Below, piece by piece: positions 9,775-52,062 of a stretch of DNA of 64,000 nt (positions are counted from its first letter, which is position 1; every line of letters begins with the position of its first letter). The notes beneath the pieces were generated by a model. The model was not told the origin of the DNA, ran no database searches, and saw nothing but the letters and a program-made list of their open reading frames with translations. The translations under genes and the position numbers were made by a program. The stretch is from Thermoanaerobaculia bacterium (lineage in GTDB: Bacteria; Acidobacteriota; Thermoanaerobaculia; Gp7-AA8): contig JBAZBK010000014.1 of NCBI GenBank assembly GCA_041671505.1, forward strand, positions 20,395 through 84,394, read 5' to 3'.

Positions 9775-9893
9775 AGAAACGACAAATGACAAATGACAAA
9801 GAGTGACTGCTCCGGGTCAGCAAAACCAGAAGCCTTGCGCTCCCAGTCTCTCTCCCCTTTCGTCATTTGTCATTCGTCATTTGTCATTCGTCT
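9775..9893. repeat. Heptamer-array-flanked cassette A: (CAAATGA/ACGACAA)n - 55-bp core - (TCGTCAT/TTGTCAT)n
   Basis: Left GAAACGACAAATGACAAATGACAAAG. Core GTGACTGCTCCGGGTCAGCAAAACCAGAAGCCTTGCGCTCCCAGTCTCTCTCCCC. Right TCGTCATTTGTCATTCGTCATTTGTCATTCGTC (4.5 heptamers). The arrays are reverse complements of each other. The right array encodes the last residues (..TQTNDK) and TGA stop of the STK gene 9877..12648. Coordinates +/-1. Confidence 0.7.
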
Positions 9894-12648
9894 GCGTCCG
9901 CGCCAGCAGCGGAATCGGGTCGGTGATCACGATCCGCTCCGCCTGGTCGTTCGCCGAGAGCACCATCGTCTTCCCGTCGGGAGAGAGCGAGAAGCTCTCC
10001 GGTGGAGCGAAGAGATCGAACGGCGTCAAATCGCGCCGTGTGGCGCGCGTGTCGCCGCCCGGCTCGAACTTCTGCATCCGAAGTCCGCACGCCCCGCTCT
10101 GTATACAGTCGAGAAATGCGAGCGACTTCCCGTCGGCCGACCATCGCGCCCGACCGGGAGAGAAGTTGCCCTGCATCCCTGCTGCCGGCGGATAGACGAG
10201 CTCGCTGACGCGCTGCACTTCCCCGCCGTCGATGCTCACGACGGACAGGAAACGTGTTCCGACCATCGAGGTCGAGTACGCGACCCACTTCCCGTCGGGC
10301 GAGACCTCAGGGAGCTGCGCCGTGCCTTCACTCGAGATGCGGGTGTCACCCTTCCCGTCGGGGTGGATCTTCCAGACGCCGGCACGAGTAGAGTTGTACG
10401 AGTTGTAGACGACCCATTGTCCGTCGGGGGTCATCGTCGGATTCTCCGCGTCGACGCCGTCGCTCGTCAGCTTGCGCGCGCCGGTGCCGTCCGCGTTCGC
10501 GATCCAGATCTCGTAGTTGCCCGAGCGCCGGGAGCTCCAGAGCAGGTATTTCCCGTCAGGGCTCATCGCCGGATCGAAATCGTCCGCAGGATCCTCGGTT
10601 AGGCGCCGCAGCGCGCCATCTTCGGTCGACACGCTCCAGATGTCGAGGTTCCCGCTCATCGTCGTCGAGAAGACGACGAGCTTGCCGTCGCGCGAGTACG
10701 CCGGCTGGCGATCCTGGCTCGCTCCGCGCGTGAGCCAGCGCCCGGTTCCGCCCGCCGCGCCCGGCAACGGCAGCTCGTGCAGATTTTGCCTAACTACGAT
10801 CTGGTCGACGATCACCCGCCCGTCATTCGTCACGTCGAGACGGAAGACCGGCTCCTGGGTGTAGAAGAGGTTCAGCGACTCGCCTGTCACGAGATTCTTC
10901 AGGAAGACGCGACTCCCCATCCCGCTCGGCGCGTACGTCGTCGAGGTCACCTCGGCCATCACGACGCGGTCGTTGTCGATCCAGGCGACGTTCGAGTGAA
11001 GCCCGGCATTCTGGAGCAGCTTCGGCTCGGTCACCTTCCCGTCGAGCCCGACGAGCGACGGCCGCCGGTTCCGGTAGCCGGGCGACGTGTCGGACACCGC
11101 GATGCGCTTTCCGTCGGGTGACCATCGCGGGTGCTGCCCCGCCATGTTCCTCAGCGTGGCGAGGTCGGTGAGCCCCGAACCGTCGGGATTCACGAGAAGC
11201 ACCTTCGTGTCGTAGCCGTCCTTGCGCTGGACCTGGCGCAGCACTGCGATGCGCGAGCCGTCGGGCGACCAGGCCGCGTCGACGCCGTCCTCGATGATGC
11301 GCCTCGGTGCGCCGCCTAACGCCGGAACCCTAAAGACGTCGGACTTCCCGCTGCCACCCTGCCGAACGAAGAGAACCGTAGCGCCGTCGGGCGAGAAGCT
11401 CGGAGTCCCGTCGGTGCCTTCGGTGAGCGCCAGCTCGCCGCCCCCTTCGATCTGCCGCAGCCAGATTCGCGCGCGACCGTCCCGCGACGACGCGAACGCG
11501 ACCATGCGTCCGTCGGGTGAAGCTGCCGGATGCAGGTCGTGGCCGGAGAACGTGAACGGGCGAAGCACCTGCGCGGGGATGTGGGTCGTGTCCGCACTCC
11601 CTCCGCCTGCACCGCGCTTCGCGATCCAGCCGATCGCGATGCCCGCGAGGAGCGACACGAGCGCGACCACGGCGACGAAACGCCGCGAGGCCCGAGGCCT
11701 CTCCGGCGCAAGGTCGAGCGCCTGCGCCTGCCCCGACATGCTCGAGAGATGGCCGAGCGCGAAGGCGACGTCGTGCATCGCGTGGAAACGCTCGTTGCGG
11801 TTCTTCTCGAGGCAATGCCTGACGATCTGGTCGAGCGCAGGGGAGACGCCCGACGTCGTCGAGCCTCTCGCGCTGGCAAGCTCCGGAGGATCCTCCTTGA
11901 GGATCGCGTTCATCGTCTCCACCTGCGAGTCGCCGCGGAACGCGCGGCGCCCGGTCAGCATCTCGTAGAGGACTGCGCCGAACGAGAAGATGTCGGTGCG
12001 GTGGTCGACAGCCTGTCCACGCACCTGCTCGGGCGACATGTAGCCGACGGTGCCCATCACCGTTCCCGGCGCGGTGTCGCGCTTCTGAGTCGCGGCGTCC
12101 TGATGGTCGCCGCCTTCGATTCCGGTCTGCTTCGCGAGACCGAAGTCGAGAATCTTCACGCGGCCGTCGGTGGTGACGAAGATGTTCTCCGGCTTGAGGT
12201 CGCGATGGACGACGCCGCGATCGTGCGCGGCGGCGAGCCCGGTAGCGATCTGCACGGCGTACTCGATCGCCTTCCGCTGCGGGATCGGAGAGACGCGCGT
12301 CGCATCGTCCTTCGCCGCGCCGGCGGCCTTCTCGTCGAGAAGGCCGCGGAGCGAATGCCCCTCGAGCAGCTCCATCGCGATGAAGGGCCCGCCCTCGTGC
12401 CGCCCCAGCTCGAAAATCGTCACGAGATTCGGATGATTGAGCGCCCCCGCCGCGCGTGCTTCCGACTCGAAGCGCGTCAGGCGGTCCTCGCTCTCGGCGA
12501 ACGACGGCGGCAGGATCTTGATCGCGACGTCACGCCCGATCCGTTCGTCACGCGCGCGATAGACCTCGCCCATGCCTCCGGCGCCGAGCGGCGCAAGGAT
12601 CTCGTAGTTGCCGATGCGGGTTCCGGGAGATACGGGCACGAAGACCAT
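9877..12648 (-). CDS. Serine/threonine protein kinase fused to TolB-like beta-propeller repeats (membrane-anchored)
   Basis: Start at internal Met (MVFVPVSPGTRIGNYEILAPLGAGGMGEVYRARD...) of track ORF. Hanks kinase motifs (VVHRDLKPENIF, DFGLA, GTVGYMSPEQ). A TM segment, then many SPDG/WSPDG TolB-type blades. The C-terminus and stop lie inside heptamer array A. Confidence 0.8.
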   Translation of the reverse strand: MVFVPVSPGTRIGNYEILAPLGAGGMGEVYRARDERIGRDVAIKILPPSFAESEDRLTRFESEARAAGALNHPNLVTIFELGRHEGGPFIAMELLEGHSLRGLLDEKAAGAAKDDATRVSPIPQRKAIEYAVQIATGLAAAHDRGVVHRDLKPENIFVTTDGRVKILDFGLAKQTGIEGGDHQDAATQKRDTAPGTVMGTVGYMSPEQVRGQAVDHRTDIFSFGAVLYEMLTGRRAFRGDSQVETMNAILKEDPPELASARGSTTSGVSPALDQIVRHCLEKNRNERFHAMHDVAFALGHLSSMSGQAQALDLAPERPRASRRFVAVVALVSLLAGIAIGWIAKRGAGGGSADTTHIPAQVLRPFTFSGHDLHPAASPDGRMVAFASSRDGRARIWLRQIEGGGELALTEGTDGTPSFSPDGATVLFVRQGGSGKSDVFRVPALGGAPRRIIEDGVDAAWSPDGSRIAVLRQVQRKDGYDTKVLLVNPDGSGLTDLATLRNMAGQHPRWSPDGKRIAVSDTSPGYRNRRPSLVGLDGKVTEPKLLQNAGLHSNVAWIDNDRVVMAEVTSTTYAPSGMGSRVFLKNLVTGESLNLFYTQEPVFRLDVTNDGRVIVDQIVVRQNLHELPLPGAAGGTGRWLTRGASQDRQPAYSRDGKLVVFSTTMSGNLDIWSVSTEDGALRRLTEDPADDFDPAMSPDGKYLLWSSRRSGNYEIWIANADGTGARKLTSDGVDAENPTMTPDGQWVVYNSYNSTRAGVWKIHPDGKGDTRISSEGTAQLPEVSPDGKWVAYSTSMVGTRFLSVVSIDGGEVQRVSELVYPPAAGMQGNFSPGRARWSADGKSLAFLDCIQSGACGLRMQKFEPGGDTRATRRDLTPFDLFAPPESFSLSPDGKTMVLSANDQAERIVITDPIPLLARTQTNDK

Positions 12649-12879
12649 AGGATAAACCGAACCGGGCGGCTTGTCGGGCAAATCGGTGACCGTCCCACCC
12701 CGCTGCGTCGAGTCGCGTCCGTCGTCAGCGCTCCAGCGCGGCTCGCGCGACGCATGGGGCCTCACGGCCCGTCACGCGGGCAGCTGCGGGTTGCCCGATC
12801 GTCACATTTCTGCTTCAGCCGACGATCGGCCCGACGAACACGGATGCCGCCAACCGCGCTGCTCTGCTACGATCCAGCC

Positions 12880-13707
12880 ATGCCCGATCAACCGAACAAG
12901 CACGCCAGCAGTCCGCAGGCGAAAGAGATGGCGGACGAGTCGATGGTGCGGAACCTCGCGGCGCAGGCGGAGGCGATCTGGCCGCAGGAAGCGCCGGTCT
13001 TCGCGCGCCACCCGTTAGGCGCCGGCTCGGTCCTCGACCTCGGTTGCGGAACGGGCGAGATCGCGGCGAGGCTCGCGGAGATGTTCCCCGGTGCGTCGAT
13101 CGTCGGCGTCGATCTCGAGGAGCCTCACCTCGACCGCGCGCGCGCAAAGTGCGCGCCGTTCGGCGAGCGGGTCCGCTTCCAGACTGGCGACGCGCTCGCC
13201 CTTCCCTTCGCTGACGACCGCCTCGACCTCGTCGTCTGCCGCCACGTCCTCCAGGCAGTCCCCGACGCGCCGCGCGTTCTCGCCGAGATCAGGCGTGTCC
13301 TCCGGCCCGGCGGGCGCGCGCACCTCATCGCCGAGGACTACGGAATGCTCTGGTGCCACCCGACCGAGCTCGACGCCGACGACTTCTGGCAGAAGATTCC
13401 GCCGACGTACGCCGGCGCGGTCGGTTGCGACCTGCACGTGGGACGGAAAATGTTCACCCTGCTGCGAACCCTCGCGATGCGCGACATCGCCGTCGACTAC
13501 ATGGTCATCGACACGCTTCGTGTTCCGCGCGACACCTTCGCACGCATCTGGGAGGCGTGGCGCGACGGCTACACCGACTCGATCGCCGCGTTAGGCGTCA
13601 TCCCGCGCGAGGAAGTCGAGCGGCGCTGGCGCGAGATGATCGACTGCGCCCGCCACCCCAACGGCTACGCCCTCTGGCAGGTCCCGGTCTGGACGGCGAT
13701 GAAGTAG
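12880..13707 (+). CDS. Class I SAM-dependent methyltransferase
   Basis: ATG at 12880 in frame within long GC-rich track ORF 11530..13707. Motif I VLDLGCGTGEIA. Methyltransferase fold-like sequence through the C-terminus. Confidence 0.75.
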   Translation: MPDQPNKHASSPQAKEMADESMVRNLAAQAEAIWPQEAPVFARHPLGAGSVLDLGCGTGEIAARLAEMFPGASIVGVDLEEPHLDRARAKCAPFGERVRFQTGDALALPFADDRLDLVVCRHVLQAVPDAPRVLAEIRRVLRPGGRAHLIAEDYGMLWCHPTELDADDFWQKIPPTYAGAVGCDLHVGRKMFTLLRTLAMRDIAVDYMVIDTLRVPRDTFARIWEAWRDGYTDSIAALGVIPREEVERRWREMIDCARHPNGYALWQVPVWTAMK

Positions 13708-13720
13708 GAGCGACGCTTCC

Positions 13721-14347
13721 TCATTCCGTCGTTTCCGTCGCCAGCATTCCCGGCGACCAGCGGTAGACCATCTCGACCGACCCGAATTCGATCACGCCGC
13801 CGTCGCGCAACACCTCGGTCCGCTCGAGGGCGACGCCGTTGATCCGCGTTCCGTTCTTGCTCACGAGGTCGGTGATCGTCGCGCGCGCGCCGTCGATCGT
13901 AATCGAGGCGTGCTGGCGCGACACCGACGTCGACGCGATCCTCACCCTCGCCGCCGGGTCGCGGCCGACGAGATTCTCCCCGGGTACGAGAAAATACTCG
14001 CGATCGCCGCGGAGCAGTACGTGCTCGGCAGCCGGGGCGCCTTGCGGAGCGTTCGGTCCGGGTGCGCAGGCGTAGCCATGCCGGTGAACGGTGCGGATCG
14101 TCTCCTTGCCTTCGTCTCCCAGGGCCGTGCGAATCTCGCGGATGAGCATTGGGAGATTCGCTTCGACGACGAACGTGTCGGGCCAGAGCTTGTCGTAGAG
14201 CTCCCGCTTCGGCACCGCGCGCGGGCGGGCGGCGACGAGGATCTCGAGAAGGTCGAAGGCCTTGGGTGACAGGTGCACCGCCTCGGCGCCGCGGTGGAGC
14301 TGCCGCGCTTCGACATCGAGCTCACAGCCGCCGATCGTGTAGCGCAT
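13721..14347 (-). CDS. Transcriptional regulator with OmpR/PhoB-type winged-helix DNA-binding domain and C-terminal FHA domain
   Basis: N-terminal trans_reg_C-like (AFDLLEILVAARPRAVPKRELYDKLWPDTFVVEANL...IRTVHRHGY). C-terminal FHA signature (LVGRDPAARVRIASTSVSRQHASITIDG...SKNGTRING). No receiver domain. Sits between two Ser/Thr kinase genes. Confidence 0.7.
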   Translation of the reverse strand: MRYTIGGCELDVEARQLHRGAEAVHLSPKAFDLLEILVAARPRAVPKRELYDKLWPDTFVVEANLPMLIREIRTALGDEGKETIRTVHRHGYACAPGPNAPQGAPAAEHVLLRGDREYFLVPGENLVGRDPAARVRIASTSVSRQHASITIDGARATITDLVSKNGTRINGVALERTEVLRDGGVIEFGSVEMVYRWSPGMLATETTE

Positions 14348-17541: not shown

Positions 17542-17549
17542 GCGACGGT

Positions 17550-19149: not shown

Positions 19150-19292
19150 GTCATCCCGAGCGTAAGGAGGGATCTGCTAACACATCAACTTGACCGCCCC
19201 CTTAGATACCACTCTCGCCACATCGTCACAGTTGCTGCTGGGGAACCGATCAGATCAAACGTTTAGCAGATCCCTCGCTTCGCTCGGGATGA
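19150..19292. mobile_element. MITE-like palindromic repeat element, divergent copy (arms GTCATCCCGAGCGTAAGGAGGGATCTGCTAA / TTAGCAGATCCCTCGCTTCGCTCGGGATGAC)
   Basis: ~30-bp inverted arms sharing the GTCATCCCGAGCG...GGGATC motif with the other copies, flanking a ~85-bp core. A partial direct duplicate of the arm start (GTCAGCCCGAGCGTAG) lies just upstream. Confidence 0.6.
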
Positions 19293-19331
19293 CGCGATCG
19301 CGGCTCGAACCTGCCCCTACTCCGCCGCGCC

Positions 19332-32845: not shown

Positions 32846-32854
32846 GGGCGCGGA

Positions 32855-33116
32855 GTTGTTAGTTGTTAGTTGTTAGTTGTTAGACATGACGCGAGAGGCG
32901 GGCCAGAGGCCAAAGGCCAGAGGCCAAAGCAGGCAGAGCATCGCAACGGCGTTCTCAAGGACTCGACGCTGTCGGTAAAAATGTGAGCCGCCGCACGTTC
33001 GGATGGCGCATCTACTGATACGTTACTTGATTGGATCGAACGACCCTCGACAACTAACAACTAACAACTAACAACTAACAACTAACAACTAACAACTAAC
33101 AACTAACAACTAACAG
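32855..33116. repeat. Heptamer-array-flanked cassette B: (TTGTTAG)x4 - ~170-bp core - (CTAACAA)x8
   Basis: Left GTTGTTAGTTGTTAGTTGTTAGTTGTTAGAC begins 10 bp after the dapB stop. Right CAACTAACAA(CTAACAA)n..CAGCCAACAGC ends 24 bp before the dapA ATG. The core has lower GC and an inner short tandem (GCCAGAGGCCAAAG x2). Confidence 0.75.
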
Positions 33117-33139
33117 CCAACAGCTCCCCAGGTGCACAC

Positions 33140-34039
33140 ATGATCGCTGACAAGTTTCGCGGGCTCGGTACGGCGCTGGTGACCCCCTTCAAGGCCGACG
33201 GGTCGATCGACGAGTACGGACTCGAGAAGCTCGTGACTCTCCAGATCGAAGGAGGCGTCGACTTTCTCGTGCCGTGCGGCACGACGGGAGAGAATCCGGC
33301 GCTCTCGGCGAGCGAGCATCTCCGCGTGATCGAGCTGGTGATCCGGCGCGCGAACGGCAAGGTGCCGGTGCTGGCCGGCGCGGGCAGCAACTCCACCGAC
33401 AAAGCCACCGACCTCGCTCTCGGCGCGCGCGACCTCGGCGCCGACGGCATCCTCTCGATCACCCCGTTCTACAACAAGCCAAACCCCGACGGCCTGCTCC
33501 GCCACTTCGAGACGCAGGCCGACGCGATCGACGACATGCCGATCATCCTTTACAACTGTCCCGGCCGGACCGGGCTCAACATGACCGCGACGACGACGCT
33601 TCGCATCGCGCGCGCGATCCCGAACGTCGTCGGCGTCAAAGAGGCGTCGGCGAATCTCGAGCAGATCCTCCAGATCCTCCGCGACCGGCTGAAGGACTTC
33701 CTCGTCCTCAGCGGCGACGACGCCTGGACGCTTCCCCTCATCGCGGCCGGAGCCGACGGCGTCATCTCCGTCGCCTCGAACGAGATCCCGCGGCTGATGA
33801 GCGAGCTGGTCGACGCCGCGATGCGCGACGACTTCGCCGCCGCGCGCCCGATCCACGAACGAATCCTCCCGCTCATGACCGGCAACTTCATGGAGTCGAA
33901 CCCGATCCCGGTCAAGGCGGCAATGAAGATGCTCGGCATCATCGACAACGACACCGTCCGCCTGCCTCTGGCGCCGATGTCGGACGAGAACTACGCCAGG
34001 ATGCGGGCGATACTGGCCGAATTGAGAATCGAGAACTGA
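33140..34039 (+). CDS. dapA: 4-hydroxy-tetrahydrodipicolinate synthase
   Basis: TIM-barrel DapA family with active-site Lys region (..NVVGVKEASANLEQ..) and GTTGE motif. The last six codons (ELRIEN) and stop are encoded by the first heptamers of cassette C. Confidence 0.9.
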   Translation: MIADKFRGLGTALVTPFKADGSIDEYGLEKLVTLQIEGGVDFLVPCGTTGENPALSASEHLRVIELVIRRANGKVPVLAGAGSNSTDKATDLALGARDLGADGILSITPFYNKPNPDGLLRHFETQADAIDDMPIILYNCPGRTGLNMTATTTLRIARAIPNVVGVKEASANLEQILQILRDRLKDFLVLSGDDAWTLPLIAAGADGVISVASNEIPRLMSELVDAAMRDDFAAARPIHERILPLMTGNFMESNPIPVKAAMKMLGIIDNDTVRLPLAPMSDENYARMRAILAELRIEN

Positions 34040-34174
34040 GAATTGAGAATTGAGAGAACGCAAACCGCAGGCTTCGCGAGCAGCCAGGGCTTGAGAATCT
34101 GAGATGGTCGAGCTCGCGGGTGAGAGCTCGCGCCTCTGCCATCTCTCAATTCTCAATTCCCAATTCTCAATTCC
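34019..34174. repeat. Heptamer-array-flanked cassette C: (GAATTGA/GAATCGA/GAACTGA)n - ~85-bp core - (TCTCAAT/TCCCAAT)n
   Basis: Left GAATTGAGAATCGAGAACTGAGAATTGAGAATTGAGAG overlaps the dapA 3' end. Right CTCTCAATTCTCAATTCCCAATTCTCAATTCCGC. The core has an internal palindrome (GAGCTCGCGGGTGAGAGCTCGCGCC). Same heptamer family as cassette H. Confidence 0.75.
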
Positions 34175-35021: not shown

Positions 35022-35228
35022 GTCAGTGTTCAGTACTCAGTACTGAGTACTGAGTACTGAGTAAGGGCACCAGAGACGAGAGAAAAGAGAAGAGTTAAAA
35101 GTTGAGTTGACCGGGCTCCTCGGCTCCGCAACTCTTCACTCTTCTCTCTTCACTCTTCTCTCTTAACTTTTTCCGTCTTCCGTGTTCTAAACTCAGTACT
35201 CAGTACTCAGTACTCAGTACTCAGTACT
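35022..35228. repeat. Heptamer-array-flanked cassette D: outer (CAGTACT/CTGAGTA)n arrays enclosing nested element X with (AGAGAAG)/(CACTCTT CTCTCTT)n arrays
   Basis: Outer left GTCAGTGTTCAGTACTCAGTACTGAGTACTGAGTACTGAGTAAGG is itself a perfect palindrome. Outer right (CTCAGTA)x5 ends 6 bp before the aminotransferase ATG. Inner X at 35064-35172 is ~85-90% identical in its arms to 49934-50044. Confidence 0.75.
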
Positions 35229-35234
35229 AAAAAG

Positions 35235-38696: not shown

Positions 38697-39227
38697 ATGC
38701 CAATCTACGAGTTCTACTGCCGCGACTGTCACACGATTTTCAACTTCCTCTCGGCGCGCGTCGACACGACGACGGTGCCTTCGTGCCCGAAGTGCTCGCG
38801 CCCGGCGCTCGAGCGCCAGGTCTCGCGCTTCGCGATCTCGAAAGGGCTTCCCGACCCGTCGCAGGCGCGGCCGGGAGGCGCGAACGACGAGCCGATATCT
38901 CCGCACGAAGAACAGATGATGCGCGCGATGGAGTCGCTCGCGTCCGACGCCGAGTCGCTCGACGAGAATGACCCGCGCCAGATGGCAGGCTTCCTGCGGC
39001 GCCTCTACGGCTCGGCCGATCTTCCCGTCGGCCCCGCAATGGAGGAGGCGATGCGCCGGATGGAAGCAGGAGAGGACCCCGACGCGATCGACGAGGAGCT
39101 CGGCGACCGGCTCGAGTCGGAGATGCCGTTCGGCGACGACGAGTCTCCGCTCACGAAGGAAGGTCGAATCAAGTGGAAGAGCCGTCGGCGGCCTCCCCGT
39201 CACGACGAGACTCTTTATTCTCTGTAG
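38697..39227 (+). CDS. FmdB-family zinc-ribbon protein with acidic C-terminal extension
   Basis: MPIYEFYCRDCHTIFNFL...CPKCS is the FmdB/regulatory zinc-ribbon signature. Divergently oriented from the kinase fusion gene. Confidence 0.7.
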   Translation: MPIYEFYCRDCHTIFNFLSARVDTTTVPSCPKCSRPALERQVSRFAISKGLPDPSQARPGGANDEPISPHEEQMMRAMESLASDAESLDENDPRQMAGFLRRLYGSADLPVGPAMEEAMRRMEAGEDPDAIDEELGDRLESEMPFGDDESPLTKEGRIKWKSRRRPPRHDETLYSL

Positions 39228-43586: not shown

Positions 43587-44474
43587 CTAACGACCGCGTT
43601 TGATCGCGAGGCGAAGGGCGTTCCTGACCTCACCGAACATCGTCTCGGGTGCAACGCCGTCGTCGCGGTGACTCCACGCCTTCTTCGTCATCACCTCGAG
43701 CTTCCGCTCGTCGAGGACCTTGCCGTCGATCGTCGCGCCGTTCAGCTCGCAGAAGACGAGCAGAGAAACGAGCGCGACGCGGCGGTTGCCGTCCTTGAAG
43801 GGCCGGTCACGGAGAAGGCCCCAATAGAGCACCGCGGCCTTGTCGGAAAAGGCCTGGTAGGCCTCGCGACCAAGGAATGTCGACTGGGGGATCTGGACGG
43901 CGCGGACGAGCCCGAACTGCGACTCGACGACGCCCGGACTTGCATTGCGGCCGCCGATCTCGCGGTCGACTGCGATATGGAGCTCGACGAGCTCCTCGAC
44001 GGTCAGGTAGCGGATCCCGCTAGTCGGCGAGGCGACGGAGGGCGTCGGGGTACTTTTTGAGAGCCCGGGCGAAGGCTGCGGAGACGTCGGGGCGGAGACC
44101 GCCGCTGACGGCCGCGCCTTTGTTTCGGCTGTCGCCTGAGGCTGAGCCTTGGGCGCCGCTGCCTTTGCCACCGGCTGGGGCTGCGCCTTTGATGCCTTTG
44201 GCTGCGGGAGCGGCTTTGTCACCAGCTTTGACGGCGGGAGCGGCTTTGACCCCGCCTTTGACGGCGGGAGCAGCTTTGACACCGGCTTTGACGGCGGGAG
44301 CGACTTTGACGCCTTCTTTGGGGCGGACTTCGACTGGGGCTTTGACGGGTTTGGGGGGCTTTTCGGCTTTGGGGACGGCTTGGGCGACGACTTTTTTACC
44401 GCTTTTGCTGGTGGCCTGGCTTTTGAGGGCTTCGTGGCTACCTTTGGCGTGGCCTTTGCTTGCTTTTTTGCCAT
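43587..44474 (-). CDS. Doc/Fic-family (death-on-curing) protein with N-terminal Lys/Pro/Ala/Ser-rich histone-H1-like repeat region
   Basis: C-terminal Fic motif HIAVDREIGG...FKDGNRRVALVSLLVFCELNG. The N-terminal ~150 aa is low complexity (PPSKPVSKLLPPSKAGSKPLPPSKLVTKPLPQPKASK), encoded by ~33-bp tandem DNA repeats. Lys is mostly AAG as elsewhere in this genome; the overlapping alternative frame 44020..44481 uses AAA. Confidence 0.7.
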   Translation of the reverse strand: MAKKQAKATPKVATKPSKARPPAKAVKKSSPKPSPKPKSPPNPSKPQSKSAPKKASKSLPPSKPVSKLLPPSKAGSKPLPPSKLVTKPLPQPKASKAQPQPVAKAAAPKAQPQATAETKARPSAAVSAPTSPQPSPGLSKSTPTPSVASPTSGIRYLTVEELVELHIAVDREIGGRNASPGVVESQFGLVRAVQIPQSTFLGREAYQAFSDKAAVLYWGLLRDRPFKDGNRRVALVSLLVFCELNGATIDGKVLDERKLEVMTKKAWSHRDDGVAPETMFGEVRNALRLAIKRGR

Positions 44475-45123: not shown

Positions 45124-45140
45124 GGTCGAAGTCTTCGGGT

Positions 45141-45331
45141 GTCAGTTGTTAGTTGTCAGTTGTTAGTTGTCAGACAGAAGCAGTGGTCGCCATCGGTGTC
45201 ATCGTGCAGTCGTGATGAGAGAAAGTCCATGGGGCATGTCACGGTTTCGAGTGCGCGTCGCGATGGAGGCAACCGGGTGTCATACAACTCTGCCGCTGCC
45301 TATCTAACAACTAACAACTAAAAACTAACAA
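45141..45331. repeat. Heptamer-array-flanked cassette E: (GTTGTTA/GTTGTCA)n - ~130-bp core - (CTAACAA)n
   Basis: Left GTCAGTTGTTAGTTGTCAGTTGTTAGTTGTCAG. Right CTAACAACTAACAACTAAAAACTAACAACC. Same TTGTTAG family as cassette B with an unrelated core. Lies between the lhr stop and the start of the 91-aa ORF. Confidence 0.75.
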
Positions 45332-45339
45332 CCCTCCCT

Positions 45340-48300
45340 CTACGTAGGACCGCGTCCAATCCGTAGCTGATACCCCATCGCCGTCGGCCGGAAGCCTTCG
45401 GCTTCGAGCGCCGCGGCCAGCGGCGATTCGGCGACGGGCCGGCCGTTCACTTCCGCGACGAAGACCGTGCGAAGGCGCTCAGCGTCACGCGCCAGTATGG
45501 ATGCAAGCGCTTTCATCGCGGCGGAGCGTTTCGGCTCGTCCTCTTCGGGGATCACCTGCAATGCGTTGCCTCCCTTGTAGAGGTACGCGACGAGCGCGCC
45601 GTCGACGAGCACGACCCTCGCGCCGACGGCGCGGGCGAGCGTTCGCCCATCCGCAGTGGCCGGCCACGGAAGGAGCGCTCCGTACGGATTCCCAGGGTCG
45701 GTCGCCGCGAGCACGAGCGCCTCGACCGTCGCGGAGTCGGCACGGAGCGATCGCAGGAGATCGATCGCGCCGCCGAGCGCGAACTGTCCGGCGGCGATCC
45801 CTTCGACGAAGTAGCCGCGTCGGATCTTCCCTGCCTCCTCCATCCGCTTGAGCACCTCGTACGCCGCAGAGAATCCGCCGCGCAGCGACTCCGCGTCGGC
45901 GACGTCGCGTGCGACGATCCCGTAGCGCGCGAGAAGCTGCTGCGCGAGCGCCGCCGCCCGCTCGGTGCTCCCCGCCGGGGCCCCTCCGATCGACTCCGCG
46001 AGCGACCATCGTCCCTCGCTTCCCTGCGGCGCGATACGCCGCGCGAGCGACGGCCTGCGAAGCGGCACGAGCGCGGGCCCGCGCGAGGCTCCGGTCCGCG
46101 CGCGAAGCGCGTGAAGGCTGTCGTTCGTGACGACGCCCTTCCAGACGAGGCTCCAGATCGCGTCGAGCGTGTCGTTAGGAAAGCCCCCGCCGAGTCCTTC
46201 GTGAATCCGGTCGAAGAACGATGCGCCAGTTGCTCGGAGAAGATCGACGACGCGCGATTCCATGCCATCGATCGATGGCTCATCCGCATCCCTGCGCAGC
46301 AATGGGAACTGCCCCCCGAGGTAGAGCGCGATGCGGCCGTCCTTCTCGCCGAGCGGCGCGACGCCGCTCCAGGTCACGTCGCCTGTCGCGATCAGCCGGT
46401 CGAGGTCACCCGGCAGATAGTCCTTTACCCGCGCCGGCAGGATCTCCGACTCGAGCAGCGACGCCGCGATCGGCAGCCCCTGCAACGAGTCGATCGCCTC
46501 GACGAGCGATGCCGCTCCCTTCCCCGGCGCCGCCACCCCCTGCCAATGTGCGAGCATTCGCGCGAAGTGCCGCGGCTCCACCGGCTCAATTTCCTTTCGC
46601 AGCTTCGCGAGAGACTGGCGGCGGATCCTCGCGAGCACGTCGGCGTGACAGAGCTCGCGCTGGCTTCCGCGGGGGCGGAACTCGCCTTCGACGATCTTTC
46701 CTTCGATCACGAGCCCGCGCAGCGCTTCGTCGATCTTCCTGCGATCGGTCCCGAGCCTCGCGGCAGCTTCTGCCGCGGTGAACGGGCCGTGCGTTCTCGC
46801 GTATCGCGACACGAGGTCGCGCAGGGGATCATCGACGGGCCGGAGGAACGCCTCGGCCACGCCGCTCGCAATCGTCGCGCCGAGCGCGTCACGATAGCGC
46901 GCGGCATCCTCGATCGCGATGAGACGCCGCTCGCCGGCGACGTCGACCTCGAGCGCGCGGCGCGCACCGAGGAGTGCGCCGACCACAGCGTCGATGCCAT
47001 CGCCCGCGAACCGGAGCGCGAGCTCCTCGCGGCTCAGGTCGCCTAACGACAGCCGCGTGTCGTGCACGGCGTCCGGGGTCGCCTCGCCGTTCGGTTCGTC
47101 GAGGCGCTGCAGCCTCGCCAGGGTCGTCGCGGTGATCTCCTCGTCGAGCAGCTCGCGGAGAGCCGCCTCCCCGAGGAGCTCGCGAAGGCGCGACTGGTCG
47201 ATCGCGAGCGCGTGCGCGCGGCGCTCCGCGAGCGGCGCGTCGCCGTCGTAGAGATAGTTCGCGACGTAGCGGAAGAGTACCGAGCCGGCGAACGGCGACG
47301 GGCGCTCCGTGTCAGAGACGACGAGCCGCGTCTCGCGCCGCTCGAGGCTGCGCATCAGCGCGACGAGCGCCGGCACGTCGAAGAGGTCGCGAAGGCATTC
47401 GCGGTACGCCTCGAGGACGATCGGAAACGAGCCGAACTTCGCGGCGACGTGGAGCAGATCGGACGCCCGTTTGCGCTGGCGCCAGAGTGGTGTCCGCTCG
47501 CGCCCCGCGCGGCGCGGAAGAAGGAGAGCGCGCGCGGCCGACTCGCGAAAGCGCGCGGCGAAGAGCGACGTGCCGGCGAGCTGCCCGACGAGCAGCTCTT
47601 CCACTTCTTCCGCGCCGGGGATGAGCGATTCGACGGCCGGCGGCGAGTCGGTATCGGGAAATCGGATCACGAAGCCGTCGTCGCCCCACATCGCGTCGAC
47701 GTCGAGCCCGCGCTCGCGCCGGACCTTCGCGATCGCGGCCATCGCCCAGGGAGCGATCACGCGACCGCCGAGCGGGCTGAGCACGCAAACGAGCCAGTCG
47801 CCGAGCTCGTCGCGCACGCGTTCGACGACGACAGTGCGGTCGTCGGGGATCGCGCCTCCCGACTCCTTCTGATCGGCGAGGTACTGCACGAGATTTCGCG
47901 CCGCGAGCTCGTCGAGCCCGTGTTTCGAGGTGAGCGTCGCGCGCGCCTTCGCCGGAGGGAGCGCCGCGAGCGAGCGCGTCAGCGCGCCGATCCGCTCGCC
48001 GAATTCGACGGGGCGCGACGCGGAGTCGGCCTTCCAGAACGGCATCTTCCCCGGCTGGCCGGGCGCGGGGATGACGATCACGCGGTCGCGCGTGATCTCT
48101 TCGACGCGCCAGGTCGACGCGCCGAGAACGAACGCATCGCCGACGGCCGTCTCGAAGACCATCTCCTCGTCGAGCTCGCCGACGCGCCCCTGGCCCTTGT
48201 CGGCTCCCGCGAGAAAAACGCCGTAGAGACCGCGATCGGGAATCGTGCCGGCGTTGAGCACGGCCACGCGACGCGCGCCGGCGCGCGAGGAGAGCTGGTC

Positions 48301-49869
48301 GCTCTCGCGATCCCAGAGGATGCGAGGACGAAGCTCCGCGAAGTCGTCCGACGGGTAGAGCCCCGCGAGCATGTCGAGGAGTTGCTCGAACGTCGCGCGG
48401 GAGAGCTGCGCCCAGGGGGCCGCGCGGCGGACCGTCTCGTAGAGCTCGCCGACGCCGTAGTCCTCGACTGCGACCATCGCGACGATCTGCTGCGCGAGGA
48501 CGTCGAGCGGATTGCGCGGAAAGCGCGTCTCCTCGATCTCGCCGCGCGTCATCGCGCGGGAGACGGCGGCGGAAGCGAGCAGGTCGCCGCGGAACTTCGG
48601 AAAGACGATGCCATGGCTCGTCTCGCCGACCTGGTGGCCGGCGCGGCCGATCCGCTGCATCCCGCTTGCGACGGAAGGCGGCGCTTCGATCTGCACGACG
48701 AGGTCGATCGACCCCATGTCGATGCCGAGCTCGAGCGTGGAGGTCGCGACGAGGCCGCGGATCGCGCCGCGCTTGAGCGCATCCTCGATCAGGAGCCGTT
48801 GCTCGCGCGCGATCGAGCCGTGGTGCGCGGCGACGAGCTCCTCGCCCGCGAGCTCGTTGAGCGCGCCGGCGAGCCGTTCCGCGAGCCGCCGCGCATTGAC
48901 GAAAAGCAGCGTGGTCCGGTGTGCGCGGATGAGCTCGACGAGGCGCGGGTGAATCGAGGGCCAGATCGACGGAGACGAGGGGAAGCGGGAGCCATCCTCG
49001 CGCGGCGACGCGCCCGGCTCGTCGAGTGCGGCCATGTCCTCGACCGGGACCTCGACGGTGATCGCGAGCGACTTCCGCTCGCCCGTGTCGACGACGGTGA
49101 CCGGGCGCCACGACTGTTCGCTCGATTCGTCGGCGGGCGTGGTGATCGGATCGGTGGAGTCGTTCTCGCGGCGCCTCACAGCGGCACTCCCGCTCGCCAC
49201 GCCGCCGAGGAAGTGCGCGACCTCCTCGAGCGGCCGCTGCGTTGCCGAGAGGCCGATTCGCTGCAGCGGGCGACCCGCGAGGCGCTCGAGCCGCTCGAGC
49301 GAGAGCGCGAGATGCGCGCCTCGCTTGGTCGGCACGAGCGAGTGGATCTCGTCGACGATCACCGTGTCGACCGAGGCGAGCGACGAGCGCGCCGCCGATG
49401 TCAGGATCAGATAGAGCGACTCGGGCGTCGTGATCAGGATGTCGGCCGGAGCGCGGCGGAATCGGGCGCGTTCGCTCTGAGGCGTGTCGCCGGTGCGGAT
49501 CGCGACGGCGGGAGCGTGGTGACGGGCGCCCAGCGACTGCGCGACGCGCGCGATGCCCTCGAGCGGCTCGCGCAGGTTCCGCTCGATGTCGACGGCAAGC
49601 GCTTTGAGCGGCGAGACGTAGACGACGCGGCAGCGCTCGCGCGCGGGAGGGAGCGGCGAGAACATCAACCGGTCGATGCACCAGAGAAACGCGGTCAGCG
49701 TCTTGCCCGACCCGGTCGGCGCGGTGAGCAGCACCGACTCTCCCTTCGCGATAGCCGGCCACCCGAGCGCCTGCGCGCGCGTCAGCCCCTCGAACGAGGC
49801 GCGAAACCACTCGGCGACGGGAGAGGCGAAGAGACCGAGCGGATCGGGCGAGGACATCGAGGGAACCAT
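45340..49869 (-). CDS. lhr: Lhr-family large ATP-dependent DEAD/DEAH-box helicase
   Basis: 1509 aa. Walker A APTGSGKTL, DEIH box, helicase C domain and the long Lhr-specific C-terminal extension. Confidence 0.85.
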   Translation of the reverse strand: MVPSMSSPDPLGLFASPVAEWFRASFEGLTRAQALGWPAIAKGESVLLTAPTGSGKTLTAFLWCIDRLMFSPLPPARERCRVVYVSPLKALAVDIERNLREPLEGIARVAQSLGARHHAPAVAIRTGDTPQSERARFRRAPADILITTPESLYLILTSAARSSLASVDTVIVDEIHSLVPTKRGAHLALSLERLERLAGRPLQRIGLSATQRPLEEVAHFLGGVASGSAAVRRRENDSTDPITTPADESSEQSWRPVTVVDTGERKSLAITVEVPVEDMAALDEPGASPREDGSRFPSSPSIWPSIHPRLVELIRAHRTTLLFVNARRLAERLAGALNELAGEELVAAHHGSIAREQRLLIEDALKRGAIRGLVATSTLELGIDMGSIDLVVQIEAPPSVASGMQRIGRAGHQVGETSHGIVFPKFRGDLLASAAVSRAMTRGEIEETRFPRNPLDVLAQQIVAMVAVEDYGVGELYETVRRAAPWAQLSRATFEQLLDMLAGLYPSDDFAELRPRILWDRESDQLSSRAGARRVAVLNAGTIPDRGLYGVFLAGADKGQGRVGELDEEMVFETAVGDAFVLGASTWRVEEITRDRVIVIPAPGQPGKMPFWKADSASRPVEFGERIGALTRSLAALPPAKARATLTSKHGLDELAARNLVQYLADQKESGGAIPDDRTVVVERVRDELGDWLVCVLSPLGGRVIAPWAMAAIAKVRRERGLDVDAMWGDDGFVIRFPDTDSPPAVESLIPGAEEVEELLVGQLAGTSLFAARFRESAARALLLPRRAGRERTPLWRQRKRASDLLHVAAKFGSFPIVLEAYRECLRDLFDVPALVALMRSLERRETRLVVSDTERPSPFAGSVLFRYVANYLYDGDAPLAERRAHALAIDQSRLRELLGEAALRELLDEEITATTLARLQRLDEPNGEATPDAVHDTRLSLGDLSREELALRFAGDGIDAVVGALLGARRALEVDVAGERRLIAIEDAARYRDALGATIASGVAEAFLRPVDDPLRDLVSRYARTHGPFTAAEAAARLGTDRRKIDEALRGLVIEGKIVEGEFRPRGSQRELCHADVLARIRRQSLAKLRKEIEPVEPRHFARMLAHWQGVAAPGKGAASLVEAIDSLQGLPIAASLLESEILPARVKDYLPGDLDRLIATGDVTWSGVAPLGEKDGRIALYLGGQFPLLRRDADEPSIDGMESRVVDLLRATGASFFDRIHEGLGGGFPNDTLDAIWSLVWKGVVTNDSLHALRARTGASRGPALVPLRRPSLARRIAPQGSEGRWSLAESIGGAPAGSTERAAALAQQLLARYGIVARDVADAESLRGGFSAAYEVLKRMEEAGKIRRGYFVEGIAAGQFALGGAIDLLRSLRADSATVEALVLAATDPGNPYGALLPWPATADGRTLARAVGARVVLVDGALVAYLYKGGNALQVIPEEDEPKRSAAMKALASILARDAERLRTVFVAEVNGRPVAESPLAAALEAEGFRPTAMGYQLRIGRGPT

Positions 49870-49884
49870 AGCAATAGGGATAGG

Positions 49885-50118
49885 CGGAAGGCGAGGGGCG
49901 AGAGGCGATGAGCAACGGTAAGTGACGGAACGGCAGAGAAGAGTGAAAAGAGAGAAGAGAAGAGTTGAGAGTTGGGAGAGCCGGGCACCCTTGATGACGA
50001 GGTCAACTCTTCACTCTTCTCTCTTCACTCTTAACTCTTCTCTGCCTCCAGCTCCCGCGCTCCGGCTCATGCTCGCCCGCATCCGCCGACTCGCCTCTCG
50101 CCCCTCGCCTTTCGCCTC
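49885..50118. repeat. Composite cassette F: outer (GGCGAGG)n/(TCGCCTC)n heptamer arrays enclosing a second copy of nested element X (49934-50044)
   Basis: Outer left GGCGGAAGGCGAGGGGCGAGAGGCGATGAG. Outer right TCGCCTCTCGCCCCTCGCCTTTCGCCTCG. Inner X arms CAGAGAAGAGTGAAAAGAGAGAAGAGAAGAGTTGAGAGTTG / TCAACTCTTCACTCTTCTCTCTTCACTCTTAACTCTTCTCTG. Starts 15 bp upstream of the lhr start codon, in the divergent lhr/PDE promoter region. Confidence 0.7.
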
Positions 50119-50184
50119 GTGCTAGACACGGCCCCTCGCCACTGCAAGAATAGGTCGCACGACTTCCCACCGACGGACTACGCG

Positions 50185-50949
50185 ATGAGACTGAAAGTGC
50201 TGGGGGCCTACGGGTCAGCGGACGCGACGCATAACCTCACCGGTTACGTGATCGACGACCGCATCGCGATCGACGCGGGAACGCTCGGGTCGAAACTGAC
50301 GCTGCTTCAGCAGTCGAAGATCGAGATCGTCTTCGTCACCCACGTCCACGCCGACCACATCCGCGACCTGCCGACGCTGATCGAGAACCGCTTCCATTCC
50401 GATGCCGCGCCGCTCGAGGTCGTCGCCGAGAAGAGCGTCATGGAGATGCTCCATGCCGACCTCTTCAACGGAAGAGTCTGGCCCGACTTCGAGAAGTTCT
50501 CGTCGCCTCACACGGGGAAGGCGGCGGTCCACTACCGGGCACTCAGCGCGGGCAAGCGGACCGTGATCGCGGGGGCGGCGTTCACCGCGGCGCTCGTCGA
50601 CCACACCGTTGCGACGGCGGGCGCGATCATCGAGCTCGGCGGGCAGGCGATCGCCTTCACCGGCGACACCGGGCCGACTGCCGCGATCTGGAAGAAAGTG
50701 AACAAGACACCCGGCATGGTCGCGATGATCAGCGAGGCGTCGTATCCGAACGACTTCGCCACGATCGCGAAGGAAAGCGGCCACCTGACTCCCGAGCTGT
50801 TCGGCGCGGAGCTCGCGAAGATCGAGGTCGACGCCCCGCTCTACGCGAGCCACCGGAAGCTCCCCTACGAGCGGAAGATCGAGTCGGAGATCCGGAACAT
50901 CCGCGACCGCCGGGCACGGATCCTCGTCGAGAAGCAGTACACGTTCTGA
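50185..50949 (+). CDS. Class II 3',5'-cyclic-nucleotide phosphodiesterase-like MBL-fold hydrolase
   Basis: Start MRLKVLGAYGS (ATG 50185). Metal-binding motif VTHVHADHIRDLP and downstream His/Asp ligands of the CpdP/PDE class II family. 254 aa. Confidence 0.7.
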   Translation: MRLKVLGAYGSADATHNLTGYVIDDRIAIDAGTLGSKLTLLQQSKIEIVFVTHVHADHIRDLPTLIENRFHSDAAPLEVVAEKSVMEMLHADLFNGRVWPDFEKFSSPHTGKAAVHYRALSAGKRTVIAGAAFTAALVDHTVATAGAIIELGGQAIAFTGDTGPTAAIWKKVNKTPGMVAMISEASYPNDFATIAKESGHLTPELFGAELAKIEVDAPLYASHRKLPYERKIESEIRNIRDRRARILVEKQYTF

Positions 50950-51102
50950 AGAATTGAAAATTTGAAATTGAACATTGAAGCTTGAACGCGGGCCAGGCAG
51001 ATCCACCCGCGGAATGTTGCGCCCTCCCCGGGAGGTTGACCGCGACGCCAGAAGCGCGATTCGTGCCTCCCGGCTCTTTTCAATTTTCAATTTTCAATTT
51101 CG
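50948..51102. repeat. Heptamer-array-flanked cassette G: (GAATTGA/AAATTGA-like)n - ~90-bp core - (TTTCAAT)x3
   Basis: Left GAAGAATTGAAAATTTGAAATTGAACATTGAAGCTTGAA starts at the PDE stop codon. Right TTTTCAATTTTCAATTTTCAATTTC ends 4 bp before the GT2 ATG. The core has a CCTCCCCGGGAGG palindrome. Confidence 0.7.
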
Positions 51103-51105
51103 CCC

Positions 51106-51957
51106 ATGCCAAGACCTCGAATCAGCGCACTCGTCACGACGTACAACGAAGCCGAGCACGTGGAGCCATGCCTCCTCTCGCTCGAGTGGGCCGACGAGAT
51201 CGTCCTCGTCGACTCGTTTTCCAACGACGGCACGGCCGAGCTCGTCCGCGACCGCTTCCCGAAGGTCAAGTTCATCCAGCGCGAGTACCTCGGCTCCGCC
51301 GCGCAGAAGAACTTCGGCCTCGACTCGGTCTCGAACGACTGGGTCCTGGTCGTCGACGCCGACGAGCAGGTCACCCCGGAGCTGCGCGACGAGATCCTCC
51401 GCGTCCTGGAGGAAGGGCCGAAGTACTGGGCCTACTGGATCGGCCGATCGAACTTCGTTCTCGGCAAACCGGTGCGCTACAGCGGGCTCCAGCGGGACGG
51501 CGTCCGCCGTCTCATGCACCGGAAGAACGCTCGCTACCCGAACCGCCGCGTCCACACCGACCTCGCGGTCAACGGCCCCGTAGGACGCCTGCGCGGCAAG
51601 TTCAAGCACCTCTACATCCGCTCGTTCGACCACCAGGTCGAGAAGATGACGCGCTACGGTCTCTGGGGCGGCACGCAGCTCCACATCGAAGGGCGCGAAG
51701 TCTCGGCACCCGGAATCCTCGGCCACTCCTTCGCCCGCTTCTTCCGCGACTACGTCGTCAATCTCGGCTTCCTCGACGGAGCCCCCGGTCTCATCACCGT
51801 CGGCCTCCACACCTTCTACACCTTCTGGAAGTACTCCAAGCTCTGGGAGTTCAACCGCCTCAAGGAGCAGGGCAGGGCGCCGAAGCTCCCGAAGATCGAG
51901 ACCGATGAGGAAGTGTGGAAGATGCCTTGGGAAGAGGACGAAGGAGAGACGAATTGA
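51106..51957 (+). CDS. Family 2 glycosyltransferase
   Basis: N-terminal GT-A fold (ISALVTTYNEAEHV...DEIVLVDSFSNDGT...VVDADE DxD). The last three codons (ETN) and stop lie in cassette H. Confidence 0.8.
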   Translation: MPRPRISALVTTYNEAEHVEPCLLSLEWADEIVLVDSFSNDGTAELVRDRFPKVKFIQREYLGSAAQKNFGLDSVSNDWVLVVDADEQVTPELRDEILRVLEEGPKYWAYWIGRSNFVLGKPVRYSGLQRDGVRRLMHRKNARYPNRRVHTDLAVNGPVGRLRGKFKHLYIRSFDHQVEKMTRYGLWGGTQLHIEGREVSAPGILGHSFARFFRDYVVNLGFLDGAPGLITVGLHTFYTFWKYSKLWEFNRLKEQGRAPKLPKIETDEEVWKMPWEEDEGETN

Positions 51958-52062
51958 GAATTGAGAATTGAGAGACATAAAAGAGATATCAATTAGAGAC
52001 TGTTACCGTAGTCAATAATTGAGAATCGTTTCACGTCTCTCAATTCTCAATTCTCAATTCCG
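51951..52062. repeat. Heptamer-array-flanked cassette H: (GAATTGA)x3GAG - 60-bp AT-rich core - CTC(TCAATTC)x3
   Basis: Left GAATTGAGAATTGAGAATTGAGAGAC. Core ATAAAAGAGATATCAATTAGAGACTGTTACCGTAGTCAATAATTGAGAATCGTTTCACGT (~33% GC). Right CTCTCAATTCTCAATTCTCAATTCC. Lies between convergent GT2 and sigma-54 RR genes; the arms are near-perfect reverse complements. Confidence 0.75.

Follow-up and report, generated by a model that had tools for sequence, protein, structure and literature searches.

Inverted heptanucleotide arrays flank variable cores at gene junctions of a Thermoanaerobaculia genome

Tandem repeats of heptanucleotides have been known from bacteria since about 1990 and are still without an explanation. 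The STRR heptanucleotide sequences of heterocystous cyanobacteria, reportedly described by Mazel et al. in 1990, are said to comprise several tandem units, to be intergenic and to occur in one genome. Here we analyse eight intergenic cassettes (A-H) of inverted heptamer arrays in a 64-kb window, the whole stretch of DNA studied, from a metagenome-assembled genome (MAG) of Thermoanaerobaculia (Acidobacteriota). Paired arrays are known from Xanthomonas: two genomes of that genus hold 186 and 183 arrays of the heptamer GGGAATC, and X. campestris and X. axonopodis have 70 and 75 convergent array pairs, described as inverted repeats that could fold into stem-loops or cruciforms (Rehm et al. 2015, PMC4692102). 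Direct repeats of TAACTGA occur in marine Beggiatoaceae, cyanobacteria and Bacteroidetes (MacGregor 2015, PMC4679880). In Geobacter metallireducens, multicopy elements hold four or five tandem heptanucleotides each (GGACCGG; MTYCTGA) (Aklujkar et al. 2009, PMC2700814).

We read all eight loci and compared their array units, arms and cores. The layout is the same at every locus: a tandem array of period 7 leads into a non-repetitive core, which is followed by the reverse-complement array. Tandem Repeats Finder likewise placed period-7 arrays on both sides of the core in all eight cassettes. Exact arrays of at least three copies occur seven times in the window at period 7 and never at periods 5, 6 or 8-11; period 4 gives three against 2.0 in shuffles, and 30 dinucleotide shuffles yielded no exact period-7 array. 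A preliminary description of this DNA had placed eight cassettes at the loci of Table 1, with a constant period of 7, inverted arms, a unique core and several heptamer families, and all of this was borne out on reading. It had also proposed that the idea be dropped if the arms proved not to be reverse-complementary; on alignment, the arms of A-H are 79-100% complementary. The long hairpins with a repetitive stem that it envisaged are recovered in predicted RNA folds, with z-scores against shuffles of -7.2 for B, -10.6 for D and -10.0 for F.

The units belong to the families TTGTTAG, GAATTGA, CAGTACT, GACAAAT, AGAGAAG and GGCGAGG. Of the window's 23 stretches with less than 45% GC, 15 are due to the cassettes, every long one included. 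Some earlier figures needed revision: the GC content of the window is 66.4% and not ~69%, the 3′ arm of B holds 9.4 copies where three to eight per array had been given, and the arrays, although AT-rich in most units, reach ~80% GC in the outer arrays of F (GGCGAGG). Cassettes D and F are nested, with outer arrays (CAGTACT in D; GGCGAGG in F) around inner arrays of AGAGAAG/AGAGTGA units. The two inner elements are homologous and have the exact 29-mer CAACTCTTCACTCTTCTCTCTTCACTCTT in common; no further copies of this element were found in 117 loci or in viral contigs.

Six cassettes (A, B, C, D, E and G) occupy co-directional junctions, F a divergent one and H a convergent one. Their neighbours are dapB, dapA, dapD and genes for an aminotransferase, an Lhr helicase, a metallo-β-lactamase (MBL)-fold phosphodiesterase, a glycosyltransferase, kinases and two-component regulators. 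All arrays lie between genes with Pfam support; three of them reach into a gene, but over no more than its final codons and stop. The loci thus hold tandem heptanucleotides in at least three head-to-tail copies, above chance and between genes, and in all eight one unit recurs on opposite strands close together, as a convergent pair.

The preliminary description had not recognised this architecture among prokaryotic repeats, which overstated its novelty, given the published convergent pairs of Xanthomonas and other heptamer arrays. The STRR sequences are said to be direct arrays with no obligatory inverted partner, and they come from another phylum with a different base composition. The likeness to the Xanthomonas repeats extends to several features: those too are intergenic tandem heptamers (2-26 units) of a high-GC genome, about three quarters of them in convergent pairs, at positions poorly conserved between sister species and nearer the upstream gene (mean 28 nt) than the downstream gene (PMC4692102). 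Whereas the single unit of Xanthomonas contains a G-tract and has been studied for G-quadruplex formation, the present lineage has at least eight families, mostly AT-rich and free of G-tracts; it also differs in its nested arrays, in stop codons inside arrays and in arms flush with both neighbouring genes.

TAACTGA repeats stand in 2-6 or more copies directly upstream of start codons, in "forward" orientation and often without a Shine-Dalgarno motif (PMC4679880). The right arms of B, E and D and the arms of a sister genome, L002 (CAACTAA, CAACTGA, GTACTCA, GGACTCA), fit NNACTNA as TAACTGA does, in the same orientation to the start. However, the TAACTGA repeats are almost all unpaired (169 direct sets, one indirect) and consist of a single unit in a low-GC genome (PMC4679880), whereas every gene-adjoining array here has a reverse-complement partner. 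The Geobacter account lists putative global-regulator site classes, among them MTYCTGA, that are "mostly found in pairs" and absent from the sister species, with a fixed copy number and partly intragenic positions, and reads them as IHF/HU-type regulator sites (PMC2700814); this likeness is one of description. Taken together, the cassettes belong to a known, still unexplained class of bacterial intergenic heptamer repeats whose paired arrangement is known from Xanthomonas, and do not constitute a new class. For this phylum, the literature searched reports no intergenic heptamer cassettes.

Table 1. Arms and inner arrays of cassettes A-H, in window positions
Feature	Position	Units and setting
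A, left arm	9774..9800	(GACAAAT)n
A, right arm	9859..9892	(TTCGTCA/TTTGTCA)n; TGA stop of minus-strand Ser/Thr kinase (9877-9879) inside
B, left arm	32854..32883	(TTGTTAG), 4.3 copies; begins 9 nt past dapB stop
B, unpaired inner array in core	32901..32929	GGCCAGA/GGCCAAA; same unit family at L003 17878-17909
B, right arm	33050..33124	(CTAACAA), 9.4 copies, plus two degenerate units; ends 15-23 nt before dapA ATG (33140)
C, left arm	34019..34055	(GAATTGA)n; codes last residues of DapA, contains dapA TGA stop (34037-34039)
C, right arm	34140..34173	CATCTC(TCAATTC)n, variant unit CCAATTC; ends 23 nt before dapD ATG (34197)
D, outer left arm	35022..35063	(CAGTACT/GAGTACT)n; directly follows dapD TAG stop
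D, inner left arm	35072..35104	AGAGAAG/AGAGTTA-type units; homologous to F inner element
D, inner right arm	35129..35187	(CTCTTCA/CTCTTCT)n, then CCGTCTT CCGTGTT
D, outer right arm	35191..35230	(ACTCAGT), 5.4 copies; 4-6 nt before aminotransferase ATG (35235), no Shine-Dalgarno motif
E, left arm	45140..45173	(TGTCAGT/TGTTAGT)n; 16 nt from start (45123) of minus-strand 91-aa gene
E, right arm	45302..45332	(CTAACAA)n; 7 nt from minus-strand Lhr helicase stop (45340)
F, outer left arm	49882..49908	AGGCGGAAGGCGAGGGGCGAGAGGCGA, GC-rich units; ~13 nt from Lhr start
F, inner left arm	49932..49974	AGAGAAG/AGAGTGA-type units
F, inner right arm	50004..50046	carries the 29-mer CAACTCTTCACTCTTCTCTCTTCACTCTT also found in D
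F, outer right arm	50091..50117	TCGCCTCTCGCCCCTCGCCTTTCGCCT; 96% complementary to outer left arm, variant units included
G, left arm	50950..50987	AATTGAA-type units; 0-2 nt past MBL phosphodiesterase TGA stop
G, right arm	51074..51101	(TTTTCAA)n; 4 nt before glycosyltransferase ATG (51106), no Shine-Dalgarno motif
H, left arm	51951..51973	(GAATTGA), 3.3 copies; glycosyltransferase TGA stop (51955-51957) in first unit
H, right arm	52038..52060	(TCAATTC), 3.3 copies; 6 nt from stop (52067) of convergent sigma-54 response-regulator gene

An assembly artefact was ruled out: the cassettes are present in independent MAGs, Logan contigs and JGI contigs, and this recurrence shows that the arrays do not arise in assembly. 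Ends of short-read contigs from the same sample fall within heptamer arrays (L007, which reaches from the right arm of B to that of C, and L117), so copy numbers in MAGs are possibly imprecise and call for caution. Contig L117 starts with TCAATTCTCAATTCTTAATTCTCAATTC and carries at positions 1-40 the arm of a ninth cassette, (TCAATTC)n, ~3.5 kb past the right edge of the window and 11 nt before a CYTH gene. The pgk/CYTH cassette known from the relative L014 is present in the window's own genome too, just outside the window's right edge.

The arrays are placed with regularity relative to coding sequence. Wherever the 3′ end of a gene adjoins a cassette, eight times in all, the array begins 0-9 nt past the stop. 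The cassettes fill whole spacers, as noted earlier, but the 4-25 bp then given as the distance to flanking stop codons does not apply to A, C and H, where the stop lies inside the array, and the same distance to flanking starts does not apply to F, whose right end lies ~66 nt from the start of the MBL gene (254-aa form). In cassette C, the array encodes the DapA C-terminus, ...ILAELRIEN*, where outgroups end in ...ILEECGLLA*. Read inward from the flanking gene, the arms close 46 of 60 frames; read outward, 19 of 60. For the outer arms other than those of F, inward reading closes 39 of 42. Whichever strand is read, an inverted pair opens with its G-rich arm in 20 of 23 cases over all sequence sets, in agreement with the "convergent" pairs of Xanthomonas. 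Right arms end 4-33 nt upstream of start codons. Where the right arm is within 6 nt of the start (D, G), no Shine-Dalgarno motif was seen; an AAGGAG motif stands between the right arm of C and the dapD ATG.

Arrays of the GAATTGA type also give weak, inward-facing sigma-70-like matches at 34022-34050 (+), 52043-52015 (-) and 51112-51083 (-), with TTGAGA or TTGGCA followed after 17-18 nt by GAGAAT, AATTAT or GAAAAT. Five promoter-like sites fall in a 20-kb region against 1.2 expected. We treat these predicted sites as a by-product of the unit sequence.

Comparison with relatives separated the arms from the cores. By its DapA relatives, the window belongs to an uncultured lineage of Thermoanaerobaculia. 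Three sister genomes (L001-L003) have ~92% DapA identity to the window and the outgroups ~67%; a metagenome scan with DapA returned distant relatives only. In the outgroups, spacers at the same junctions are 0-60 bp and without arrays. The dapB/dapA junction is an ATGA overlap in L004, a 20-bp spacer in L006 and 294 bp in the window, and the dapA-dapD spacer is ~40-60 nt in the outgroups. Because outgroup junctions are compact and lack arrays, the cassettes are lineage-specific additions. Among sister species, one junction may hold the same cassette, a cassette of a different heptamer or none. Cassette B has TTGTTAG/CTAACAA arms around unalignable cores in the window, L001 and L003, and L002 has GAGTCCT/AGGACTC arrays there instead. 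The gene at 38697-39227 is followed in the window by a plain spacer of 112 bp with no array. At this junction the sister genomes do have arrays: AGTCCTG in ~20 copies, partnered by units of the GGACTCA/GCACTCA type, in L002, GAGGCCA in L003 and GGCGAGA in L001, each beginning 2-9 nt past the stop codon.

The sister genomes are diverged enough for conservation to be informative. Fourfold-degenerate sites are 56-63% identical between the window and L001-L003, near saturation given the strong G/C bias. Cassette C is present in all four genomes, with mean pairwise identities of 81% in the 5′ arm, 68% in the 3′ arm and 45% in the core. Between L013 and L014, the left arm of cassette G is identical at 37 of 37 positions, including the variant unit GAATGTA, and the core at 27 of 46. 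Hence these alignments show constraint on the arms only, with cores that drift neutrally. The H ortholog of L013 and L014 mixes GAATTTC and GGATTTT with GAATTGA units, which indicates that units drift in place. In relatives further removed, the pairs are GC-rich: L010 has GCGAGCA...CTGCTCG and L016 has CCTCGGC arrays. Array lengths are unchanged between two strains that are 99.76% identical, and a hypervariable contingency locus is therefore unsupported.

Two rearrangements in relatives touch cassette positions. The Lhr helicase gene (4.5 kb) is missing from L013 (8950-9290) and L014 (3770-4100) relative to window 45140-50120, and the remnant joins a decayed cassette E to a remnant of the right arm of F, as if a deletion had both of its end points inside cassettes. 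In the more distant L016, Lhr still adjoins the MBL gene. Between dapD and the aminotransferase gene, genomes L001-L003 carry an extra ~1.8-kb gene without a Pfam match (L003 11863-13689), in the exact place of window cassette D (35022-35230); the outgroups have neither the gene nor the cassette.

The arms are not pure microsatellites; position-specific variants recur at unrelated loci and across species. AGGCGGAAGGCGAG(G/A)GGCGAGAGGCGATGAGC is found at window F and at position 8003 of L001, a different junction, and its complement adjoins an acetyltransferase gene in L013. CCATCTCTCAATTCTCAATTCCCAATTCTC is found at window C and at the pgk/CYTH junction of L014. The GAATTGA family has inner junctions in common, GAGAGA on the left and CCATCTCTC on the right, and the mismatched variant unit CCCAATT is common to window C, its three orthologs and the L014 pgk/CYTH junction. 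Cores within the window showed no significant similarity for B against E or among C, G and H. Their lag-7 signal is 0.26 against a baseline of ~0.25; the absence of a residual signal rules out that the cores are decayed heptamer arrays.

In eight stems of the GAATTGA family, 88% of cells are paired. Three stem pairs have changed on both sides, for instance GAGAGA/TCTCTC to GAGCGA/TCGCTC in L002, and the covariation score was matched by only 4 of 500 shuffles. These alignments lend modest support to a constrained stem.

We next compared the cassettes with catalogued and mechanistically defined elements. Rfam, a check suggested at the outset, gave no family at gathering thresholds; the sub-threshold matches were eukaryotic miRNA precursors, and because they fall on both strands they reflect a generic long hairpin. 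Intrinsic terminators were rejected, with no terminator-like site at any cassette arm and a total of 13 against a shuffle expectation of 11.6. As CRISPR arrays the repeats fail because they are 7 nt long, contiguous and inverted between arms, not direct repeats of 23-50 nt with spacers. Integron attC sites were set aside because no R''/R' core site (GTTRRRY) was seen in the arms and the flanking genes are those of housekeeping operons, and G-quadruplex units (GGGANTN) because the arms lack regularly spaced tracts of three or more Gs, the single GGGG standing in one variant GGCGAGG unit.

Paired repetitive extragenic palindromic (REP) sequences, known as REPINs or bacterial interspersed mosaic elements (BIMEs), resemble the cassettes as intergenic hairpins of ~100 bp with two inverted short repeats around a spacer, several families per genome and an extragenic location (Bertels & Rainey 2011, PMC3116915). 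Their REP units are single imperfect palindromes of ~20-25 nt with a GTAG/GTGG head, mobilised by REP-associated tyrosine transposases (RAYTs), whereas here the arms are tandem heptamers and no RAYT was seen. A REP, BIME or REPIN unit was rejected for the arms, which lack an internal palindrome (except for the AGTACT core of D) and a GTAG/GTGG head. A different structure was seen in two relatives, a REPIN-like inverted pair of 25-nt palindromic units (GTGGCGCAGGCACTCCTGCCTGCGC ... GCGCAGACAGGAGTGTCTGCGCCAC) at L003 14818-15010 and L001 5036-5150. It sits at a convergent aminotransferase/kinase junction that lacks it in the window and in L002; nothing in the window matches it, and it looks quite different from the heptamer cassettes.

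MITEs, the miniature inverted-repeat transposable elements, are likewise matched only in part. The arms, 79-100% complementary, are terminal inverted repeats (TIRs), but internal sequence is not shared, only the inner elements of D and F being homologous. No target-site duplication was seen outside the arms of C, H, L013-G or L014-pgk, where the flanks read cc/cg, ac/cg and tg/ga; sister-species junctions differ also by gene gain or loss, so that clean pairs of empty and filled sites are not available for this comparison. The 30 window proteins scanned include no transposase, nor was one found in two short extensions (~71 kb of the source genome read), and the gene tables of contigs obtained by protein look-up list no transposase or RAYT gene.

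Two of the heptamers also occur in viral contigs. When these were scanned, 45 stretches contained (GAATTGA)3 and 51 contained (TTGTTAG)3 (96 in total). The arrays are mostly unpaired and biased in orientation: the C/A-rich strand lies at most 40 nt upstream of the start of a long open reading frame (ORF) in 26 of 63 and 19 of 51 arrays, the opposite strand in 12 of 63 and 4 of 51. Paired cassettes of the same design are found as well, for example in L045. Five IMG/VR contigs of 53-59% GC (L035, L020, L027, L026, L031) hold four to six (GAATTGA)n arrays on a single strand, and many IMG/VR arrays read (TCAATTC)n on the gene sense strand, 0-6 nt before the start, with no Shine-Dalgarno motif.

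Our tentative preference, which we hold with somewhat less than even confidence, is that these are hairpin-forming heptamer-microsatellite cassettes, that slippage and hairpin templating maintain them, and that they are either tolerated or put to use as intercistronic punctuation. The arrays would be made and resized as replication slips in a 7-nt register; intrastrand hairpin templating (quasi-palindrome correction), together with selection for the stem, would keep the arms mirror images of each other; and existing arms would be copied to seed new junctions. Co-transcribed with its neighbours, a cassette would zip the spacer out of the linear path of the transcript. The arm facing the incoming gene would close almost every frame within ~40 nt, so that insertion into a gene's last codons would be harmless, and the arm facing the outgoing gene would provide a G-poor, mostly stop-free leader that can abut a start codon. 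The cassette would then be tolerated, perhaps mildly useful punctuation, not a terminator.

Several points weigh against this account. We infer co-transcription and any effect on translation, and the covariation is based on only eight related sequences. Intercistronic RNA hairpins, the first role suggested in the preliminary description, draw support from the conserved arms and the few compensatory changes but not from a comparison of strands: sense and antisense RNA folds, which differ in G-U pairs against A-C mismatches, are separated by -11 to +9 kcal/mol with mixed sign, and since they are equally stable, any stem constraint could act on DNA and not RNA. Selection on the stem alone accounts neither for the identity of TTGTTAG and GAATTGA across near-saturated divergence nor for the conserved mismatched unit CCCAATT. 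The GC-rich families (outer arms of F, L010, L016) violate the rule of stops inward and open leaders outward. The unchanged lengths in strains 99.76% identical imply that slippage is not fast, and a period of exactly 7 is left without an account. A bolder form of the proposal, in our judgement rather unlikely, is a distinct punctuation class, in which diverse heptad arrays spread as hairpin arms by copying in 7-nt steps and are kept as frame-independent stops, Shine-Dalgarno-independent leaders and a bridging stem.

The main rival, and a serious one even though we consider it unlikely, is that the cassettes are non-autonomous mobile elements akin to MITEs or REPINs, with heptad-array TIRs bound by a transposase encoded elsewhere, and that these selfish insertions survive only in junctions. 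Mobility, also raised in the preliminary description, fits the arm families that recur with identical position-specific variants at unrelated loci in different species, and the inner palindromic element of D and F, which sits within different outer arms like a nested insertion. It would also suit the differences between sister species in presence, absence and heptamer family at one junction, the restriction to a lineage that excludes the outgroups, and the sharply defined ends, GAATTGAG...CTCAATTC. Yet no boundary read has a target-site duplication, same-family cores in the window are unrelated (B and E; C, G and H), and neither the 30 window proteins nor the contig gene tables include a transposase or RAYT. 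At least eight terminal sequences would demand many transposases, or one that reads structure and not sequence, and old orthologous copies keep their arms while their cores randomise, which is unexpected of a dead selfish insertion. A templated repeat-adding enzyme, the third role put forward earlier, has nothing in its favour; the many different units argue against a fixed template.

Two further readings are less likely. The omega repressor of pSM19035, a dimeric ribbon-helix-helix protein, binds cooperatively to adjoining 7-bp units that stand in direct and in inverted orientation; RNA binders of the cold-shock or S1 type cover ~7 nt each. Proteins that polymerise on contiguous heptads of double-stranded DNA or RNA would make the cassettes operators or regulons; we find this improbable, although heptads of the omega type would give a molecular reason for the strict 7-bp period. 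Omega heptads consist of the single unit WATCACW at a few plasmid promoters with no long core, and we saw no sign of such a protein here. Unit sequence is conserved more than pairing needs, the same heptamers stand at fixed positions beside start codons in unrelated viral contigs, and several units have an NNACTNA core (CAACTAA, CAACTGA, GTACTCA, GGACTCA) near the Beggiatoaceae TAACTGA; a heptamer-binding partner has been proposed (PMC4679880; bioRxiv 10.1101/2022.06.06.494920). On the other hand, at least eight families, GC-rich and AT-rich, coexist in one genome, a range that no single protein can read. No function is common to the flanking genes (dap operon, helicase, kinase, glycosyltransferase), no candidate gene for a binding protein was identified in the window, and binding does not need an inverted same-family partner in every case. 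Also improbable, if marginally less so, is a neutral by-product of mutation, in which a quirk of replication or repair expands 7-nt units in AT-rich spacers and quasi-palindrome templating inverts them, with neither function nor mobility. Heptanucleotides are the commonest long simple repeat in many genomes, ascribed to a general expansion tendency (Mrazek et al. 2007, as cited in PMC4679880). Co-directional, divergent and convergent junctions are all occupied, units drift in place, and some arms decay, such as those of E in L013 and L014. A neutral origin sits poorly with arms far better conserved than fourfold sites or cores, and independent birth in place would not be expected to yield identical variant-bearing arms at unrelated loci. 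Consistent stop-flush placement and polarity are also unexpected from it, and there is no length polymorphism at 0.25% divergence.

Other repeats and genes were noted as well. A second dispersed repeat, GTCATTCCGAGCGCAGCGAGGAATC, is present at window positions 3910-3934 (+) and, with 3 mismatches, at 19269-19293 (-). Logan contig L116, from the same sample, terminates in this motif on either side, which indicates that it is multicopy in the genome, and a similar motif lies inside cassette cores of the viral contig L045. The MBL-fold phosphodiesterase gene between F and G (50185-50949 (+)) has a precomputed Pfam match to PF23023 (Anti-Pycsar_Apyc1); as the gene is 60-100% identical across hundreds of Thermoanaerobaculia contigs, its product is probably a host-encoded Apyc1-like enzyme. 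Two tandem repeats lie within ORFs: CTTTGACGGCGGGAGCGG..., with a period of 30/60 nt, at 44194-44394 in a Fic-domain ORF, and GAAGAAGAAGGGCGACGA, with a period of 18/39 nt, at 5902-6005 in a tricorn-like protease ORF. Both periods are multiples of 3, and both repeats presumably encode low-complexity protein segments.

This lineage is unusually informative about heptamer repeats because it combines many unit families in one genome, obligatory inverted pairing, nesting and sister genomes whose divergence is close to saturation, which together set constrained arms apart from neutral cores. It also offers regularities that reporters can test: arrays flush with stop codons, arms that are stop-rich inward and open outward, and a C/A-rich strand before starts, in viral contigs too. 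Since the arrays break short-read assemblies and appear to have been the end points of a 4.5-kb deletion in a sister lineage, they would affect both MAG quality and genome plasticity in soil and groundwater Acidobacteriota. If the bolder reading of a distinct punctuation class is true, its logic would extend to unpaired heptamer arrays in cyanobacteria, Beggiatoaceae, Xanthomonas and many phages.

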